From positions 1 to 52,193 of IMG/VR virus record IMGVR_UViG_3300027754_000129: DNA of 52,193 nt; one strand, written 5' to 3'. Positions 32,663-40,934 of this stretch are shown here, in pieces (the first letter of the stretch is position 1; each line of letters opens with the position of its first letter). Both the position numbers and the translations under genes were made by a program. This DNA is from a virus (Duplodnaviria > Caudoviricetes). Under the pieces are notes generated by a model. It was not told the DNA's origin. It was given only the letters and a program-made list of their open reading frames with translations, and searched no databases.

Positions 32663-32771
32663 TGTGGGTTATTAAGGGAGAATGTTTAATCGGAGAACTG
32701 AACAAAAATTTTAAAATAAAAAGAAGGGTGGTTTTTTATCATTTTAATCTATTTATATATAAAATAAAACA

Positions 32772-33683
32772 ATGAAATATATGAGAAATTTTATTAAAAC
32801 AACAATACGAGAGTTTTTGAATAAAGAACATAATAATAGAAGTGTTAAATCTATTATGAAAAAGTATAAAAAAGATACTAAATATAATATTGAAAATAGT
32901 TTGGGTAATTGTTCATTTTTTACAAAAGATGTGATTAATTGGGCTAAAAAAAATGGATTAAAAGCAGATTATGTATATATGCCAATGTCTGAAGAATATA
33001 GAAGTAAACATAAAATAGGAAAAGATTTTGGTGGTGATGATTCCGACTGGGAAGACCACATTGTTCCTATGATTGATGGGAAAATAATTGATTTTACATA
33101 TACTAATGAAGGTGTTTCACATAAAGTTAGAAAAGTAAATACCATTCCACCAATGATAGTTAATTATGGCAAGTCTCTGTTTGAACCAAACGGTATGTAT
33201 GGTAGATTTGGGTATACTAAACCAGAAATAAATACTGAATACGGTAATTCAAAGGATATAAACCAATTTCAAGTATCTAAACCAAAGTTAAAAACTTTAC
33301 AAGAATCAATAGATAAAACTGCTGGTGTATGGGTAACAGATGAAAAATTTGAAGATGGTACTGATTTTAAAATTAAATTTAAAGTTAGTGATATTATAGA
33401 ATTGGCAAAAAACAAACCAGTAAAAGAAGTAAACCCAAAGTCAATAGATTATGATTTTAGTGGTAGAAAAGAAGATGAAGGTGAAACCAATAAACGAGTT
33501 ATGGATGCAAATTTATCTTACCCAATATTAGTTGTTCAAAATGATAAAGGTAAAATATTCGGAATGCTAGACGGAACACATAGATTACAAAAAGCATTAA
33601 CAATGAAGTTAGATAAAATTAAAATTAAAATTTTTAACAAAGAAGAACTATTACCTTTTAAAGTAGAAGAGTTTAAATATTAA
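32772..33683 (+). CDS. Leader-bearing two-domain protein: Cys-His-Asp (transglutaminase/papain-like) domain plus ParB-like domain
   Basis: Leader RNFIKTTIREFLN; GNC...HIV..IDG.IIDFT; internal LQE; YPILV......LDGTHRL.KA. Confidence 0.65.
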   Translation: MKYMRNFIKTTIREFLNKEHNNRSVKSIMKKYKKDTKYNIENSLGNCSFFTKDVINWAKKNGLKADYVYMPMSEEYRSKHKIGKDFGGDDSDWEDHIVPMIDGKIIDFTYTNEGVSHKVRKVNTIPPMIVNYGKSLFEPNGMYGRFGYTKPEINTEYGNSKDINQFQVSKPKLKTLQESIDKTAGVWVTDEKFEDGTDFKIKFKVSDIIELAKNKPVKEVNPKSIDYDFSGRKEDEGETNKRVMDANLSYPILVVQNDKGKIFGMLDGTHRLQKALTMKLDKIKIKIFNKEELLPFKVEEFKY

Positions 33684-33688
33684 AAAAT

Positions 33689-33820
33689 ATGGAAAAAGAA
33701 CTAACAATTGAACGTAAAGTTATAGAAGGTGTTGAGCATTTTGACTACATCTTAAAATATTACTTAGGTGAAGAAGATTTTAAAAAGTATGTCATTGATG
33801 GTGCGGAGATTGTTCCTTAA
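33689..33820 (+). CDS. 43-aa hypothetical protein ending just before the attC-like site
   Basis: MEKELTIERKVIEGVEHFDYILKYYLGEEDFKKYVIDGAEIVP*; stop 1 nt before ATGG-CTTA-TAAC. Confidence 0.55.
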   Translation: MEKELTIERKVIEGVEHFDYILKYYLGEEDFKKYVIDGAEIVP

Positions 33821-33821
33821 A

Positions 33822-33926
33822 ATGGCTTATAACGATTGGGTGTATGAGAAGGTTTGCTTGTAGAAACTTTAAAATTAACCACTACCGTTGATAGCAAACT
33901 TTCTTATACACCTTGTTATATGCAGT
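33822..33926. mobile_element. attC-like recombination hairpin, copy 1
   Basis: TATAAC...GGTGTATGAGAAGGTTTGCT-loop-AGCAAACTTTCTTATACACC-TT-GTTATA; 20-bp stem with two G:T pairs; arms identical to copy 2. Confidence 0.75.
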
Positions 33927-34038
33927 GCGGATTTAACCTACAAACTTTGATACGAGAGATAAACCTTTTTCTTTTATTTTTTGTGGGTGGAAATTTAAAA
34001 TTTGAATATTTTTATATAAAAGAAAACTATTTATTATT

Positions 34039-34851
34039 ATGGAACTAAGAAATTTTATAAAGACCGCTATACGAGAATATTTGAATGAACAACAGATATT
34101 GAAAGAAAATAACAATTTAGATGACATTGATATTAGTAAATTACTTAATAAGTTTATTTCTGACCCAGTAGAATTAATGCGAATACTCAATGTTAGTACA
34201 GTTGATTTGTTTTCACCAGAACAATCAATGAAACTAACATTATTTGCCGCTAAATTTAAAGATGGTTTATATAATCACTGGGCAGAAATACATAAAAACT
34301 TAACAGCAACTATTGATGGTATGGATGTATCAAAACACCTTAAACAATTAATATATCCAACAGACGTTACATACTTAATAAAAGATACTGATAATTTTTT
34401 AAAAAAATTAGAAAATAGAGTTAAACAAAGAAAAAATACTGCAATGAAACAAGATGATTATTCCAATCCATATGGTCGAGTTTGGGATGAAATAACGCCT
34501 TTATCTGTTGTTGAAGATTCATTAAAAAACCCAAATACCAAATATAATTACACTCAATATGAATATGCACAAGCAGATTTAGACTTACAACTTATAAAAT
34601 TAATTAGAAGTGGAAATTTAGAAGTAAAAACATCAGCAAGTGAAGGTTTTAACAATGAAATTATAGATATTTTAAAAAATGGATTAAAAGGTGAAGAATT
34701 ATTAAATCTAATTCATATTTCAGATTTAAGAAGATTTGTTGAAAAATTTTGGAGAAAAAATAAAAAAGATATTGAGATTAAATATATTGATGCAAAAAAC
34801 AAAGGAGCTAATCAGATATTAGTTAACACAATTGAAGGGCTGAAAAAATAA
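34039..34851 (+). CDS. Cassette-borne hypothetical protein with capsid-targeting-like leader
   Basis: MELRNFIKTAIREYLNEQQILKE; TATTTAT at 34028; flanked by two attC-like sites. Confidence 0.75.
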   Translation: MELRNFIKTAIREYLNEQQILKENNNLDDIDISKLLNKFISDPVELMRILNVSTVDLFSPEQSMKLTLFAAKFKDGLYNHWAEIHKNLTATIDGMDVSKHLKQLIYPTDVTYLIKDTDNFLKKLENRVKQRKNTAMKQDDYSNPYGRVWDEITPLSVVEDSLKNPNTKYNYTQYEYAQADLDLQLIKLIRSGNLEVKTSASEGFNNEIIDILKNGLKGEELLNLIHISDLRRFVEKFWRKNKKDIEIKYIDAKNKGANQILVNTIEGLKK

Positions 34852-34899
34852 AACAAAAAGATTATAACCACGAAACTTAATACGAAGGACAAACGTAGC

Positions 34900-35000
34900 A
34901 TCGCATATAACGATTGGGTGTATGAGAAGGTTTGCTTAGATGAACTTTCAAACTACAACTGCTGATAGCAAACTTTCTTATACACCTTGTTATACACAGT
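34900..35000. mobile_element. attC-like recombination hairpin, copy 2
   Basis: Same arms as 33822-33926 with a different loop and flanks. Confidence 0.75.
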
Positions 35001-35083
35001 ACGGTAAAATCATACAAATGCTTGATTGAACCACTAAACAAAAACTTTTAAAAACCTGAATATTTATATATAAAAGTAAAACT

Positions 35084-39191: not shown

Positions 39192-39243
39192 AATTTTATC
39201 CCTTTTGAGCGTGGGATGCTCGTAAATATAAATAACTAATAAA

Positions 39244-39501
39244 ATGATTGGACAACTTGCAAAACTTACAAAAAAACAAACAAACAGAGAATATTTTAGC
39301 AATATTCCAGTGGGAACATTTTTCATAATAACAGATAGCCACAACAATATGCCAGCCTATGAATTAACTGGATATTTCATTGGGATAATGCCAAATATAC
39401 TATCAGATGGCACACCGCACTTTACTGGTTATATTGAAAGAGGTAGTTGGGAATTAGTAGGGAATATTGCTGACAATATCGGTGCGGTGGCGGTCTTTTA
39501 A
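39244..39501 (+). CDS. Cassette-borne hypothetical protein
   Basis: Bounded by GTTAGCAG (39180) and CTGCTAAC (39512); the stop overlaps ATGG-CTGC-TAAC. Confidence 0.6.
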   Translation: MIGQLAKLTKKQTNREYFSNIPVGTFFIITDSHNNMPAYELTGYFIGIMPNILSDGTPHFTGYIERGSWELVGNIADNIGAVAVF

Positions 39502-39508
39502 TGGCTGC

Positions 39509-39564
39509 TAACTACTTGCTATACGAACTTTAAATTGTATAAAAAATGAAAGTTATTGAAAAAC
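39509..39564 (+). repeat. 56-bp element at a cassette end, copy 2
   Basis: 54/56 identical to 35764-35819. Confidence 0.85.
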
Positions 39565-39686
39565 TATCTAAAACTATTTTTGTTAAAGGGCATTCTATGA
39601 ATAAAGGTAAATCATTAAGTGATAAACATAAACAAAATTTATCATTAAGTCATATTGGTAGAACTTATAAAAAAAGAAAAAAATGA
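39546..39686 (+). pseudogene. Chimeric 46-aa ORF with a NUMOD3-like fragment
   Basis: MKVIEK (from the repeat) joined to KGKSLSDKHKQNLSLSHIG. Confidence 0.45.
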
Positions 39687-40015
39687 CAAAAACTATGAAA
39701 TATTGGGATTATAAAGGTTGGGTTGGAGTAGAAAATTACGACCAAGAAATTTGGAATTTTCGACTTCACATTGAAATAAATAAATGTTCGGCTAGATTAT
39801 TTAAAAAATATAAGATAAATGCAAATTCAATTAGATGTTCACCCGAACTATTTGAGTTACTTAAAACACTTGAGTATTTTGATAAAAATTTACACTATTT
39901 ATGTGGAAGATATAAAATCTTTAGTTCACTTAATGTTAAAAAAAATGAGTTAGTTATTTTTAATACTGATAATTTTGATATAAAAGAAACACTAAAAATT
40001 AAAAATTATGTGTAA
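39683..40015 (+). CDS. Hypothetical protein
   Basis: ORF track. Confidence 0.6.
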   Translation: MTKTMKYWDYKGWVGVENYDQEIWNFRLHIEINKCSARLFKKYKINANSIRCSPELFELLKTLEYFDKNLHYLCGRYKIFSSLNVKKNELVIFNTDNFDIKETLKIKNYV

Positions 40016-40643
40016 TATTTGTGAGTTAAATAAGTTTAATATGTCTGTGAAAATATGTCGAAAAATAAAAGAATTAAAAACTAATATCTTTAAAAAAACT
40101 AGTATTGAAATCCCTTATGATGTTGTTATTAAAGATTGGGATTTTGATGACCCATATGGTATGTTTTGCCAGTTTTGTAAAGTAATTTATATTAATAAAA
40201 ACATTGTTAATAATGATAAATTATTTGAAAAAGTTATATACCATGAATTTCTTCATTTATATCTACAAGTTGATACAAAATTATTTTATAATGTTTTTAG
40301 GGATAGATTTACATCAACTTATTTCTTTTACTTAAATAAATATTGTGATAAATACCAAGTGGTAACAATATATCCATATTGTGATATTTGGGTTAAATTT
40401 AAACAAACCAATACTGAGGGAATTAGAAACCAAAAGTTATTACAAAAAAATAAATCATTATCTAATAATTACGGACAATTTGAAATGTTATCAGAGTTTA
40501 TTATACATAATTCTGATTATTATTACCAATGTGATTTTAATGATGAAATTTTCGAGGATAAAATTTTACTAGAAATGAATAAATTTGTGTTTAATTTAAT
40601 TTTAGAGAATATAAATAAACATACTCAAGCCGTTAAAAACTAA
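40008..40643 (+). CDS. Zincin/SprT-like HExxH protein
   Basis: IYINK.......FEKVIYHEFLH. Confidence 0.6.
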   Translation: MCNICELNKFNMSVKICRKIKELKTNIFKKTSIEIPYDVVIKDWDFDDPYGMFCQFCKVIYINKNIVNNDKLFEKVIYHEFLHLYLQVDTKLFYNVFRDRFTSTYFFYLNKYCDKYQVVTIYPYCDIWVKFKQTNTEGIRNQKLLQKNKSLSNNYGQFEMLSEFIIHNSDYYYQCDFNDEIFEDKILLEMNKFVFNLILENINKHTQAVKN

Positions 40644-40646
40644 AAA

Positions 40647-40874
40647 ATGGAAGAAATTTACACAAATATCGTTTATCAAAAACCAGTTCCAGTCACTGAG
40701 TTTAAACCAACATCACCAATGATGAACCCAATCACTTATGAATTAATCAATCCAGAATTATGGGAAGATGGGTTATATTTATCACCAAATTTAATGGATG
40801 AAAATCTAAAAATAAATATGGTTTATGAGATAAAGGATAAAAAAGTGGTTAGAGTATATAAATCGAAGGTATAA
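40647..40874 (+). CDS. Hypothetical protein followed by a cassette-end motif
   Basis: ATTG-GTTA-TAAC at 40881-40892 just after the stop. Confidence 0.6.
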   Translation: MEEIYTNIVYQKPVPVTEFKPTSPMMNPITYELINPELWEDGLYLSPNLMDENLKINMVYEIKDKKVVRVYKSKV

Positions 40875-40934
40875 TGTAGTATTGGTTATAACTAATGGCT
40901 AACCGCTATATAAATCTAAATAAACAAAACTAAT

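Follow-up and report, generated by a model that had tools for sequence, protein, structure and literature searches.

Between positions 32663 and 40892 of the stretch of viral DNA analysed here (52,193 nucleotides, positions 1 to 52,193 of IMG/VR record IMGVR_UViG_3300027754_000129; hereafter the window), small genes are punctuated by two hairpins and by short motifs ending in TAAC. A preliminary description, made from the sequence alone, took these for the cassettes of an integron-like system in a phage. The locus thus raises the question of whether phages possess such a system of their own, and by which enzyme and at which site it would work.

The coordinates given in that description for five left and three right cassette ends were all confirmed (Table 1), as were the bulge of 3 nt and the top-strand G:T pairs of the hairpins. 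Folded as RNA, the + strand of hairpins 1 and 2 reaches -39.5 and -36.6 kcal/mol (z -5.8 and -5.5), and none of 200 shuffles folded as well; the - strand reaches only -26.3 and -31.6 kcal/mol. With DNA parameters, the values for hairpin 1 are -18.5 (+) versus -12.3 (-). When the covariance model that had been proposed as a check was run over the whole window, it matched these two hairpins and no other full one, and the remaining claimed ends proved not to be hairpins when folded against shuffles (z -1.2, -0.8 and +0.3, and -2.3 for 40870-40935).

Table 1. Features of the cassette region in the window.
Feature	Position	Strand	Basis or remark
First cassette leader	32663..32771	+	Resembles leaders that follow hairpins in other loci
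Cassette gene, 303 aa	32772..33683	+	ORF list; N-terminus MKYMRNFIKTTIREFLN common to other cassette genes
Cassette 3' end ATGG-CTTA-TAAC	33822..33833	+	Inferred crossover point after 33833
Hairpin 1, attC-like: outer stem TAACG/TGTTA, 3-nt bulge, 21-bp stem with G:T wobbles, variable loop	33830..33918	+	Covariance model 119.6 bits, E 5e-26; folding
Right end GTTA-TATG-CAGT	33915	+	Coordinates checked
Cassette B leader	33919..34038	+	N4 TATG at 33919-33922, then conserved promoter-like module
Cassette B gene, 270 aa	34039..34851	+	ORF list
Cassette B 3' end ATCG-CATA-TAAC	34900..34911	+	CATA exactly complements TATG at 33919
Hairpin 2, attC-like	34908..34992	+	Covariance model 106.1 bits, E 9e-23; folding
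Right end GTTA-TACA-CAGT	34989	+	Coordinates checked
Cassette C gene, 206 aa, MSEDIRK... family	35084..35704	+	ORF list
Cassette C 3' end ATGG-AGCA-TAAC	35756..35767	+	Homology to other loci ends there
Non-hairpin sequence TACTTGCTATACG... joined to TAAC	35768..35800	+	Direct repeat D17
Right-end remnant GTTA-GCAG-ATGT without left arm	39180..39191	+	Pattern match
Cassette gene, 85 aa	39244..39501	+	ORF list
Cassette 3' end ATGG-CTGC-TAAC	39501..39512	+	CTGC exactly complements GCAG at 39184
Trailer-type end (GTAGT)ATTG-GTTA-TAAC	40881..40892	+	Follows gene 40647-40874

The five left ends start 0 to 52 nt past a stop codon. By themselves, the loose end patterns are weak in the window: ATNG-N4-TAAC occurs 16 times (11.8 expected; 16 of 100 shuffles reach this number) and GTTA-N6-GT 43 times (29.7 expected; no shuffle of 100 reaches it), and it is the relatives that supply significance. 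The N4 tetranucleotides match as had been claimed, perfectly across the cassettes at 33834-34911 (TATG/CATA) and 39180-39512 (GCAG/CTGC) and at only two of four positions across that at 34912-35767 (AGCA versus TACA at 34993), where the leader has therefore probably been swapped.

Other parts of the region appear to be remnants. The sequence at 32663-32831 matches leaders that follow hairpins in loci L036 (90%), L022 and L063 (both 88%), and the hairpin that precedes this type of leader elsewhere is missing before 32663 by the covariance model. Similarly, the right end at 39180..39191 neither folds nor matches the model, and no hairpin follows the end at 40881..40892. The left ends at 35756 and 39501 adjoin a non-hairpin repeat, a correction to the earlier reading: the sequence at 35768..35800 recurs at 39513-39545 with 96% identity. 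It may be distantly related to the recombinase-side site described below, a comparison made by eye only. The 303-aa and 270-aa products have no Pfam family, and no recombinase was found in the window, as had been stated. The window is likely to hold a short, partly decayed, recombinase-less piece of an integron-like array.

In relatives, a structural detector run on all retrieved loci puts the hairpin family at no fewer than 357 copies, spread over about 180 viral loci, and its 21-nt left arm is matched exactly in 100 viral stretches. Inside an invariant outer box (TAAC/GTTA) come a 3-nt bulge on one side and a conserved inner box (GTAT/ATAC); the stem covaries while keeping its G:T wobbles at fixed places, and the loop varies. 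RNAalifold applied to 70 copies gave 25 pairs, 14 with compensatory changes, and G:U is retained at fixed stem pairs in 68/70 and 69/70 copies. The hairpins form a covarying site family whose architecture is attC-like. Their arms are conserved in sequence, and the RYYYAAC/GTTRRRY consensus is mostly unmet, in keeping with the absence of RYYYAAC noted for the window. In five near-complete jumbo genomes (CheckV 96-100%), they are clustered into arrays, in blocks of up to about 10 kb. The carriers are likely an AT-rich group of freshwater jumbo phages to which the system is native. Because the phages are related and the samples overlap, the counts over these loci do not represent independent events.

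The relatives also allow the N4 pattern to be assessed in a large sample, by comparing the 4 nt to the right of one hairpin with the 4 nt to the left of the next. Perfect complementarity is found across 52 of the 112 cassettes bounded by adjacent hairpins, versus 7/196 within one hairpin and 5.1% of random pairs, and none of 20000 permutations reached 52. Seventeen N4 types occur across the adjacent pairs; the match is perfect in 37/55 pairs spaced by less than 700 nt, and in 94/181 of a larger hairpin set, whereas controls stand at about 4-5%. The claim that N4 matches better across a cassette than across a hairpin thus holds for window and relatives alike, and the integron criterion that the start of a cassette complement the inverse core at its end is met. 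About half of the cassettes have no perfect N4.

Homology between genomes breaks exactly after TAAC. The trailer family of cassette C is present in 16 contexts, and in all of them homology ends at AAC, beyond which lie unrelated hairpin types; in the window, homology to the 15 other loci ends at the AAC of the cassette C 3' end. Hairpin cores that have a downstream leader in common are alike (mean identity 0.84; 49/106 pairs at 0.9 or above), whereas those with a common upstream trailer do not exceed background (mean 0.61 versus 0.63; 0/38 pairs at 0.9 or above). The hairpin therefore travels with the downstream gene. The preliminary description had assigned the cassettes by a G/TT crossover; the crossover instead lies on the AAC (5') side, which places the hairpin in the downstream cassette.

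Traces of mobility are preserved at the same junctions. Locus L135 has the form X-TAAC/site, and L133 and L039 the form X-TAAC/797-nt cassette/site, with 118 nt of left flank at 100% identity and 939 nt of right flank at 98.8% (100% over the first 400 nt). The difference of 797 nt is a precise insertion or deletion of one cassette at the site TAAC/TATnATATAT (the slash marks the junction). Unrelated left sides adjoin 100%-identical right sequence in L134, L135 and L133 (904 nt for L134 versus L135 or L133, the first 400 nt for L135 versus L133) and in L184 and L185 (904 nt), so that different cassettes adjoin identical recombinase regions. In L032, a 394-nt cassette has been duplicated exactly (100%); TAAC marks both bounds, and one of the copies lies at the recombinase-side site. 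All 30 cassette pairs homologous at the DNA level (at least 90% identity) lie in the same context, and the evidence for recent movement consequently rests on a small number of events. Assembled unitigs, which break at the repeats, showed no circle junction.

Three observations had been named beforehand as refuting an integron-like system: invariant gene order, breakpoints off GTT/AAC, and N4 complementarity no better within cassettes than between them. None was made: cassette content varies (the 182 cassette proteins represent 138 families), the breakpoints map exactly to AAC, and N4 matches far better within cassettes. The proposal is therefore supported.

An alternative is suggested by the PeSL of T4-type phages, in which modules of promoter and stem-loop flank small variable genes of hyperplastic regions and mediate shuffling and mini-circles, exchange occurring by homology between motifs (Arbiol et al. 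2010, PMC2839356); its abstract reports no dedicated recombinase and no fixed crossover. A further PeSL-related paper is PMC4122927. By analogy, the hairpins and promoters here would be regulatory modules between which general recombination, itself able to make circles, swaps genes without any dedicated site-specific enzyme. In favor of this reading, long conserved leaders and N-terminal coding modules are common to otherwise unrelated genes, half-hairpins fused to promoters (L008, L094 and L049) and leader-swapped recombinants exist, N4 is mismatched in about half of cassettes, arrays persist without an intact recombinase, and mini-circles are described for PeSL. However, exchange anywhere within motif homology, as PeSL would require, is not what is seen: breaks fall exactly after TAAC beside unrelated sequence, between partners (unrelated hairpin types and a non-hairpin site) having only 4-6 nt in common. 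Moreover, N4 covaries across cassettes, the hairpin shows linkage on a single side, stem covariation goes together with fixed wobbles, and in loci that carry a recombinase, the enzyme and its site always lie at the array end. PeSL-like shuffling is thus unlikely to account for the system. The half-hairpin fusions and imperfect N4 do imply that homologous recombination in the conserved leaders likely acts as well.

The search for a recombinase that had been proposed for phage and host identified a tyrosine recombinase beside the arrays of relatives. PF00589 was matched in 3/5 near-complete jumbo genomes, about 0.6-1 kb from the last array hairpin, sharing its strand and lying at the 3' end, and a fourth genome carries a truncated copy in the same place; among the five, one is without the gene (CheckV 96%), one has a fragment only, and in one the gene is split. 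In all 19 hairpin-selected loci with a recombinase, every sense hairpin lies upstream and the co-oriented enzyme closes the array on its 3' side. In the reverse test, on recombinase-selected loci, sense hairpins were found upstream in 50/55 (counting only loci with enough upstream flank) and downstream in 0/76. The conserved non-hairpin junction TAAC/TATnATATAT precedes the recombinase start by about 40-110 nt, and N4 is perfect in 17/18 distinct loci for the cassette that adjoins it. The positions of recombinase and site are thereby established, and the criterion for an attI-like site is met; its function as the main insertion point is inferred. Some of the adjacency may reflect inherited gene order.

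The enzyme, of 266-286 aa, is Xer-like. It falls below every NCBIfam cut-off, including those of the integron integrase TIGR02249 (156-158 bits versus 265) and of PRK15417 (107 versus 435). It aligns to VchIntIA (2a3v) in two separate blocks and lacks about 48 residues in the intervening region, where the IntI-specific domain is located; to archaeal XerA, it aligns end to end. An IntI-type identity was accordingly rejected, which corrects the enzyme implied by the integron analogy. Its nearest counterparts in isolated phages, from Cellulophaga and Polaribacter phages, are 38% identical. The Bacteroidota host inferred in the preliminary description is therefore no more than a possibility, suggested and not established.

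No serine recombinase was found in the five near-complete genomes. A HUH enzyme had also been proposed as a target, and the Y1 HUH transposase PF01797 was likewise absent (0/5), in a search whose control matched 6/14 genomes. This bears on the idea that the hairpins are miniature elements of the IS200/IS605 or REP/RAYT type inserted 3' of TAAC by a HUH enzyme, for which speak their start right after a fixed tetranucleotide and their strand-specific folding. Yet beyond the missing transposase, the hairpins occur only in co-oriented arrays adjoining a tyrosine recombinase, and the N4 on the two sides of one hairpin do not match. This explanation is virtually ruled out.

It could also be argued that the hairpins process or stabilize polycistronic transcripts, a 5'-3' panhandle of leader and trailer selecting for N4 complementarity. 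The sense strand does fold best, owing to its G:U pairs; a second complementary block in leader and trailer was read by eye; and among the products encoded in the window are an RNase R/II-like exonuclease, two RNA ligases, and a kinase-like protein, which suggests that RNA ends matter to the phage. However, exact DNA breakpoints, cassette insertion/deletion and duplication, and a recombinase with its site at the array end would remain unexplained. Phage RNase III was found in none of the five near-complete genomes, and many leaders carry a conserved promoter-like motif downstream of N4', which would thus fall outside the gene's own transcript. A primarily RNA-level role is very unlikely. From the same motif, many cassettes are predicted to bring their own promoter, its activity being inferred.

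The region is most likely a piece of an integron-like gene-capture system. In the proposed mechanism, a cassette would consist of hairpin core, GTTA-N4', leader, usually one small gene, trailer, and N4-TAAC, with the hairpin in the role of attC. The Xer-like recombinase would act on the folded sense strand, with strand exchange immediately past TAAC; cassettes would be excised as circles and reinserted, for the most part, at the recombinase-side site. Circularization would bring N4 and N4' to the two sides of a single hairpin, whose stem they would lengthen, which would explain why they are complementary across a cassette and not across an array hairpin. That this recombinase is the enzyme, that single strands fold, that circles are intermediates, and which strand reacts are all inferred.

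The mechanistic details of bacterial integrons (intI, attI, attC arrays) are general background to the comparison. In both systems, a tyrosine recombinase lies beside a simple site and an array whose cassettes, most of them with a single gene, are set apart by imperfect hairpins with AAC...GTT at their ends; the cassette end complements the cassette start, the newest-looking cassette adjoins the simple site, and cassettes can be duplicated. The order of array, site, and recombinase in sense on the folding strand is that of the bottom strand of a classical integron. In canonical integrons, however, it is the folded bottom strand that recombines, whereas here the sense strand folds better and the genes lie on it, co-oriented with the recombinase. 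The phage hairpin stands at the 5' end of its cassette, its arms are strongly conserved in sequence, and bulge and wobbles replace single extrahelical bases. Many cassettes have their own promoter-like leader, the setting is a jumbo phage, and the recombinase lacks about 48 residues relative to VchIntIA. The canonical layout of divergent integrase, promoterless cassettes, and Pc is thus unmet, and as the recombinase lacks the extra domain of integron integrases, the system is integron-like in its working and not a canonical integron.

Integron parts are not new to phages: integron fragments and attC clusters (CALINs) are known there, virulent phages included (Qi et al. 2023, PMC9892861). That study detected canonical attC and IntI with IntegronFinder in 21/10,705 NCBI phage genomes, tested them with bacterial IntI1, and reported DNA methyltransferases among the cargo; the words 'jumbo' and 'Xer' do not appear in it. 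Here, in contrast, sites, recombinase, and layout are the phages' own and non-canonical. Unlike in PeSL, the crossover falls exactly at TAAC, N4 covaries, and a recombinase adjoins the array. Xer-type recombinases act on the pdif modules of Acinetobacter plasmids and on the folded single-strand attP of CTX phage, and modules with inverted ends or folded single-strand hairpins thus have likenesses among Xer substrates. Those systems rely on host XerCD at 28-bp dif-like sites, or on one attachment site of a phage, and are not known to form arrays in which hairpins bound the gene cassettes and the recombinase is the system's own.

The few recognizable cargo genes hint at a counter-defence and accessory arsenal, which is a tentative suggestion. 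On a bolder reading, toward which the evidence leans, jumbo phages of freshwater bacteria possess a self-contained 'phage integron', with a small recombinase without the IntI domain, sense-strand hairpins at the cassette 5' end, and insertion beside the recombinase's own gene. If true, integron logic would have had an origin of its own here, apart from bacterial IntI, and would serve the turnover of a counter-defence and accessory gene arsenal.

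The preliminary description had proposed an integron-like cassette system around two hairpins (33830-33918 and 34908-34992) and eight cassette-end motifs, and the positions of all of these held. The hairpins also held as structures, since both fold far better than shuffled sequence, and in both the + strand folds better than the - strand, owing to several G:T(U) pairs. They are, however, the only full hairpin copies in the window: the remaining proposed ends were correctly placed, but no hairpins stand there, and the loose end patterns, taken alone, occur at chance or mildly above it. 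No match to the window was obtained from Rfam at gathering thresholds, and a covariance model run without filters gave no other credible hairpin in it (next best E 0.047 or worse), with one weak match at 35750-35838 (E 0.53). The end pattern also occurs at a small palindrome at 16932-16961, which sits within a gene and has only a weak fold (z -1.8); it was taken as a chance occurrence. The integron-like case for the hairpins of the window, as set out below, depends on relatives throughout.

A cassette is understood here as a hairpin, a leader, usually one small gene and a trailer closing in N4-TAAC, where N4 denotes the four nucleotides before TAAC and its partner the four nucleotides after the closing GTTA of a hairpin. 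The cassettes of the window are listed in the table together with other features of the sequence. Two of its trailers adjoin a repeated non-hairpin sequence, at 35768 and 39513, which bears a loose likeness to the site found beside the recombinase in relatives; no recombinase follows either copy. The array appears to be decayed and without a recombinase. As a separate observation, a 46-aa ORF that follows the second TACTTGC repeat (39546-39686) carries a motif rich in lysine, serine and glycine, which is loosely reminiscent of homing-endonuclease DNA-binding modules. Three pairs of direct repeats, intergenic and at gene starts, lie 3' of the hairpin cassettes and suggest additional modular exchange without hairpins.

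Cassettes and other features of the window
Feature	Position	Remarks
Cassette without its 5' hairpin	32663-33833	
Intact cassette	33834-34911	Perfect N4
Cassette with probably swapped leader	34912-35767	N4 2/4
Cassette with right arm as remnant only	39180-39512	Perfect N4
Trailer end	40881	
Shared N-terminal peptides	34039-34110, 32772-32830, 35084-35150	Also in many loci besides
Direct repeat pair	36085-36133 / 37585-37633	92% identical
Direct repeat pair	37541-37594 / 39074-39127	89% identical
Direct repeat pair	38497-38651 / 41187-41341	83% identical
tRNA-Leu	31379-31464	Anticodon AAG; shortly upstream of the cassette region
Dense repeats	29760-30850	12-nt period; overlap the four tandem ORFs
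Four tandem ORFs in the repeat region	30028, 30242, 30432, 30641	66-69 aa, ~200 nt each
RNA-end toolkit	1707-5771 and 24574-26571	Kinase/CPD-like protein, T4 Rnl1-like and second RNA ligase, exonuclease (RNB, CSD2 and S1 domains)
Sigma-70 family factor, phage-encoded	43927-44799	Regions 1.2, 2 and 4
Perfect short palindrome around GTACAC..GTGTAC, two copies	44804-44836, 51465-51497	Fold of 44775-44850: z -4.75

The window comprises 52,193 bases at a GC content of 27.5%, estimated by CheckV to be ~15% of the genome, and almost all of its genes lie on the + strand; they encode, among others, an RNase R/II-like exonuclease, two RNA ligases, a kinase-like protein, a PRPP synthetase and a sigma-70 factor. 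Near-complete relatives (CheckV 96-100%) have genomes of 281-464 kb, and are therefore jumbo phages. The region is present in public runs from freshwater and lake metagenomes, and a blastn comparison of it with 50,697 deposited phage records returned no matches. A Bacteroidota host is possible but no more than suggested: the closest recombinases among isolated phages, at 38% identity, are those of Cellulophaga and Polaribacter phages, and TAnnTTTG-like motifs, which would match a promoter consensus, recur upstream in the window.

The 21-nt left arm of the hairpins has exact matches in 100 viral stretches, while other copies of the family have only the outer stem in common and differ in their inner stems and loops. 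An alignment of 70 copies yields a consensus of 25 pairs, 14 of them with compensatory changes. G:U occupies fixed positions in 69/70, 68/70 and 46/70 copies (with A:U in 21 at the last of these), and little or no variation is seen in TAAC, GTTA and the inner GTAT/ATAC. Selection therefore very likely acts on the folded sense strand, in which two boxes are conserved, one side carries a bulge and the tip varies. This layout resembles that of an attC site, but the consensus does not. It remains possible that the hairpins have an additional role as RNA. Half hairpins were also seen, with the left arm joined straight to a promoter-like motif or a start codon, in three viral loci (L008 9253, L094 6561 and L049 7915(-)); these are likely to be products of illegitimate or homologous recombination within the element.

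The complementarity of cassette ends was assessed by comparing the 10 nt that precede AAC with the 10 nt that follow GTT. The two flanks of one hairpin pair no better than chance (4.47/10, against 4.43/10 for random pairs), whereas the right flank of a hairpin and the left flank of the next one show higher pairing, at 5.66/10. Among the 229 hairpins (196 unique) found by a structure-based detector, 52 of the 112 adjacent pairs show perfect N4 complementarity across the cassette, as do 37 of the 55 pairs spaced by less than 700 nt, with 17 distinct N4 pairs represented. The corresponding values were 7/196 within a hairpin and 5.1% for random pairs, an 'outer' control lay at the random level, and none of 20000 permutations reached 52 perfect pairs. 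Over all loci, 94 of 181 cassettes are perfect. Because of relatedness and partial redundancy among the loci, the independent events behind these and the other counts are fewer than the figures suggest.

The position of the crossover is indicated by the trailer ...GGCATGGAGCATAAC, which closes the third cassette of the window at 35767 and is found in 16 contexts: homology always ends at AAC, and is followed by a different hairpin type or by other sequence. Furthermore, hairpin pairs with the same downstream leader and different trailers have a mean core identity of 0.84 (49/106 at ≥0.9), whereas those with the same upstream trailer and different leaders have 0.61 (0/38 at ≥0.9), against a background of 0.63. 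Core identity thus tracks the leader and not the trailer, and the hairpin is therefore part of the downstream cassette, with the crossover at or within TAAC. Homologous recombination in the conserved leaders very probably operates as well.

In five near-complete genomes, the hairpins (identified with model R1) are grouped in blocks of at most ~10 kb. Three of these genomes encode a PF00589 recombinase on the same strand as the array, at its 3' end and ~0.6-1 kb from its last hairpin; the fourth carries a 112-residue recombinase fragment at the corresponding place, and no recombinase was found in the fifth or in the window. No HUH transposase, serine recombinase or RNase III was found in any of the five genomes. 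By tblastn, the recombinase was recovered in many loci originally fetched by the hairpin arm only, and in 19/19 such loci all sense-strand hairpins lie upstream of it. The reverse test used 80 loci fetched by recombinase alignment, of 387 relatives in the collection. Counting only the 55 loci whose upstream flank is 1,500 nt or longer, sense hairpins were found upstream in 38 by the strict detector and in 12 of the remaining 17 by the model, giving 50/55. Downstream of the recombinase, the strict detector found no sense hairpin in 76 loci, and the model gave a single weak match (locus L162, E 0.0016).

The recombinase is an Xer-like protein. Its alignment with archaeal XerA structures runs from end to end, its scores fall under every NCBIfam cut-off and, relative to VchIntIA, it is without ~48 residues at the position of the VchIntIA extra domain; its many metagenomic relatives are automatically annotated as XerD. 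In the 464-kb genome, the recombinase gene is in two pieces ~830 nt apart (L071 2877-3365 and 4193-4288), possibly through an insertion, an intron or decay.

One last cassette sits between the final hairpin and the recombinase. Its trailer ends in N4-TAAC, where it meets a conserved sequence that is not a hairpin, TAAC|TATnATATAT, a few tens of bases 5' of the recombinase start. N4 is perfect for this cassette in 17 of 18 distinct loci, compared with about half elsewhere, as would be expected if new, intact cassettes entered at this site. Twenty-one pairs of loci are ≥90% identical in the 400 nt that follow the site junction on its right, and in 10 of them the left sides are unrelated; for L134/L135, L134/L133 and L184/L185, identity is 100% over 904 nt, beginning at the junction AAC.

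In L135, the trailer and its TAAC lead directly into the site. L133 and L039 contain the trailer of L135 (100% over the available 118 nt), a 797-nt hairpin-plus-gene unit ending TACATAAC, and then the site of L135. These loci differ by the precise insertion or deletion of one cassette. In addition, L032 contains an exact 394-nt duplication (8399-8792 and 11401-11794), spanning from directly after one TAAC to the next; one copy is internal and followed by a hairpin, and the other adjoins the site. At the DNA level, the only cassettes found when looking for sharing between different contexts were syntenic near-identical pairs (32/32; 30/30). No precise cassette circles were shown in unitigs of public runs (X1-X4), which break at repeats and are uninformative either way. 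Joints in X3 and X4, from 33878 to 35073 with 18 other nucleotides between and back from 35772 to 35057, are of 90-95% likeness and probably represent related phages or tandem paralogues. The activity of the recombinase, the circle and the reacting strand are inferred from sequence alone, and none has been observed.

Among the 145 unique cassette proteins, the median length is 98 aa and Pfam matches are few; the cassette proteins of the window have none. The matches comprise four DNA methylases (three N6/N4 and one C5), three ART-PolyVal ADP-ribosyltransferases, one Tad3 Thoeris inhibitor, two RNA ligases, a PAPS-reductase-like protein, a GNAT and a MazG-like protein. Clustering of 182 cassette proteins gave 138 families. 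Homologues at ≥90% identity keep their neighbours (23/23 on each side), and the few diverged homologues have different ones (7/7). It was also observed that cassette genes with unrelated bodies have common N-terminal peptides ending L/M/V-N-E (such as ...IREYLNE and ...NFKQFMNE), a motif present in 17/145 cassette proteins, and that DNA homology between phages spans only hairpin and leader and ends after the first ~25 codons. These peptides are loosely reminiscent of the T4 capsid-targeting leader, which is cleaved at LxE.

Integrons are gene-capture devices of bacteria. Canonical integrons or attC clusters were reported in 21 of 10,705 deposited phage genomes (Qi et al. 2023, PMC9892861), in work that mentions neither jumbo phages nor Xer; the integron parts published for phages so far are only captured fragments of bacterial type (PMC9892861). 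In T4-type phages, PeSL shuffling proceeds by homology, with mini-circles (Arbiol et al. 2010, PMC2839356). No description of an array native to phages and equipped with a recombinase of its own was found in the full-text literature searched, which did not extend to subscription journals or supplements. If the present reading is true, giant phages would have a concrete route for the gain and loss of small accessory genes, among them the Thoeris inhibitor, DNA methylases and ADP-ribosyltransferases. A plain Xer-like enzyme would then suffice to run cassette recombination at hairpin sites, and hundreds of natural site variants, together with their recombinases, would be available for probing how such an enzyme reads a folded strand.
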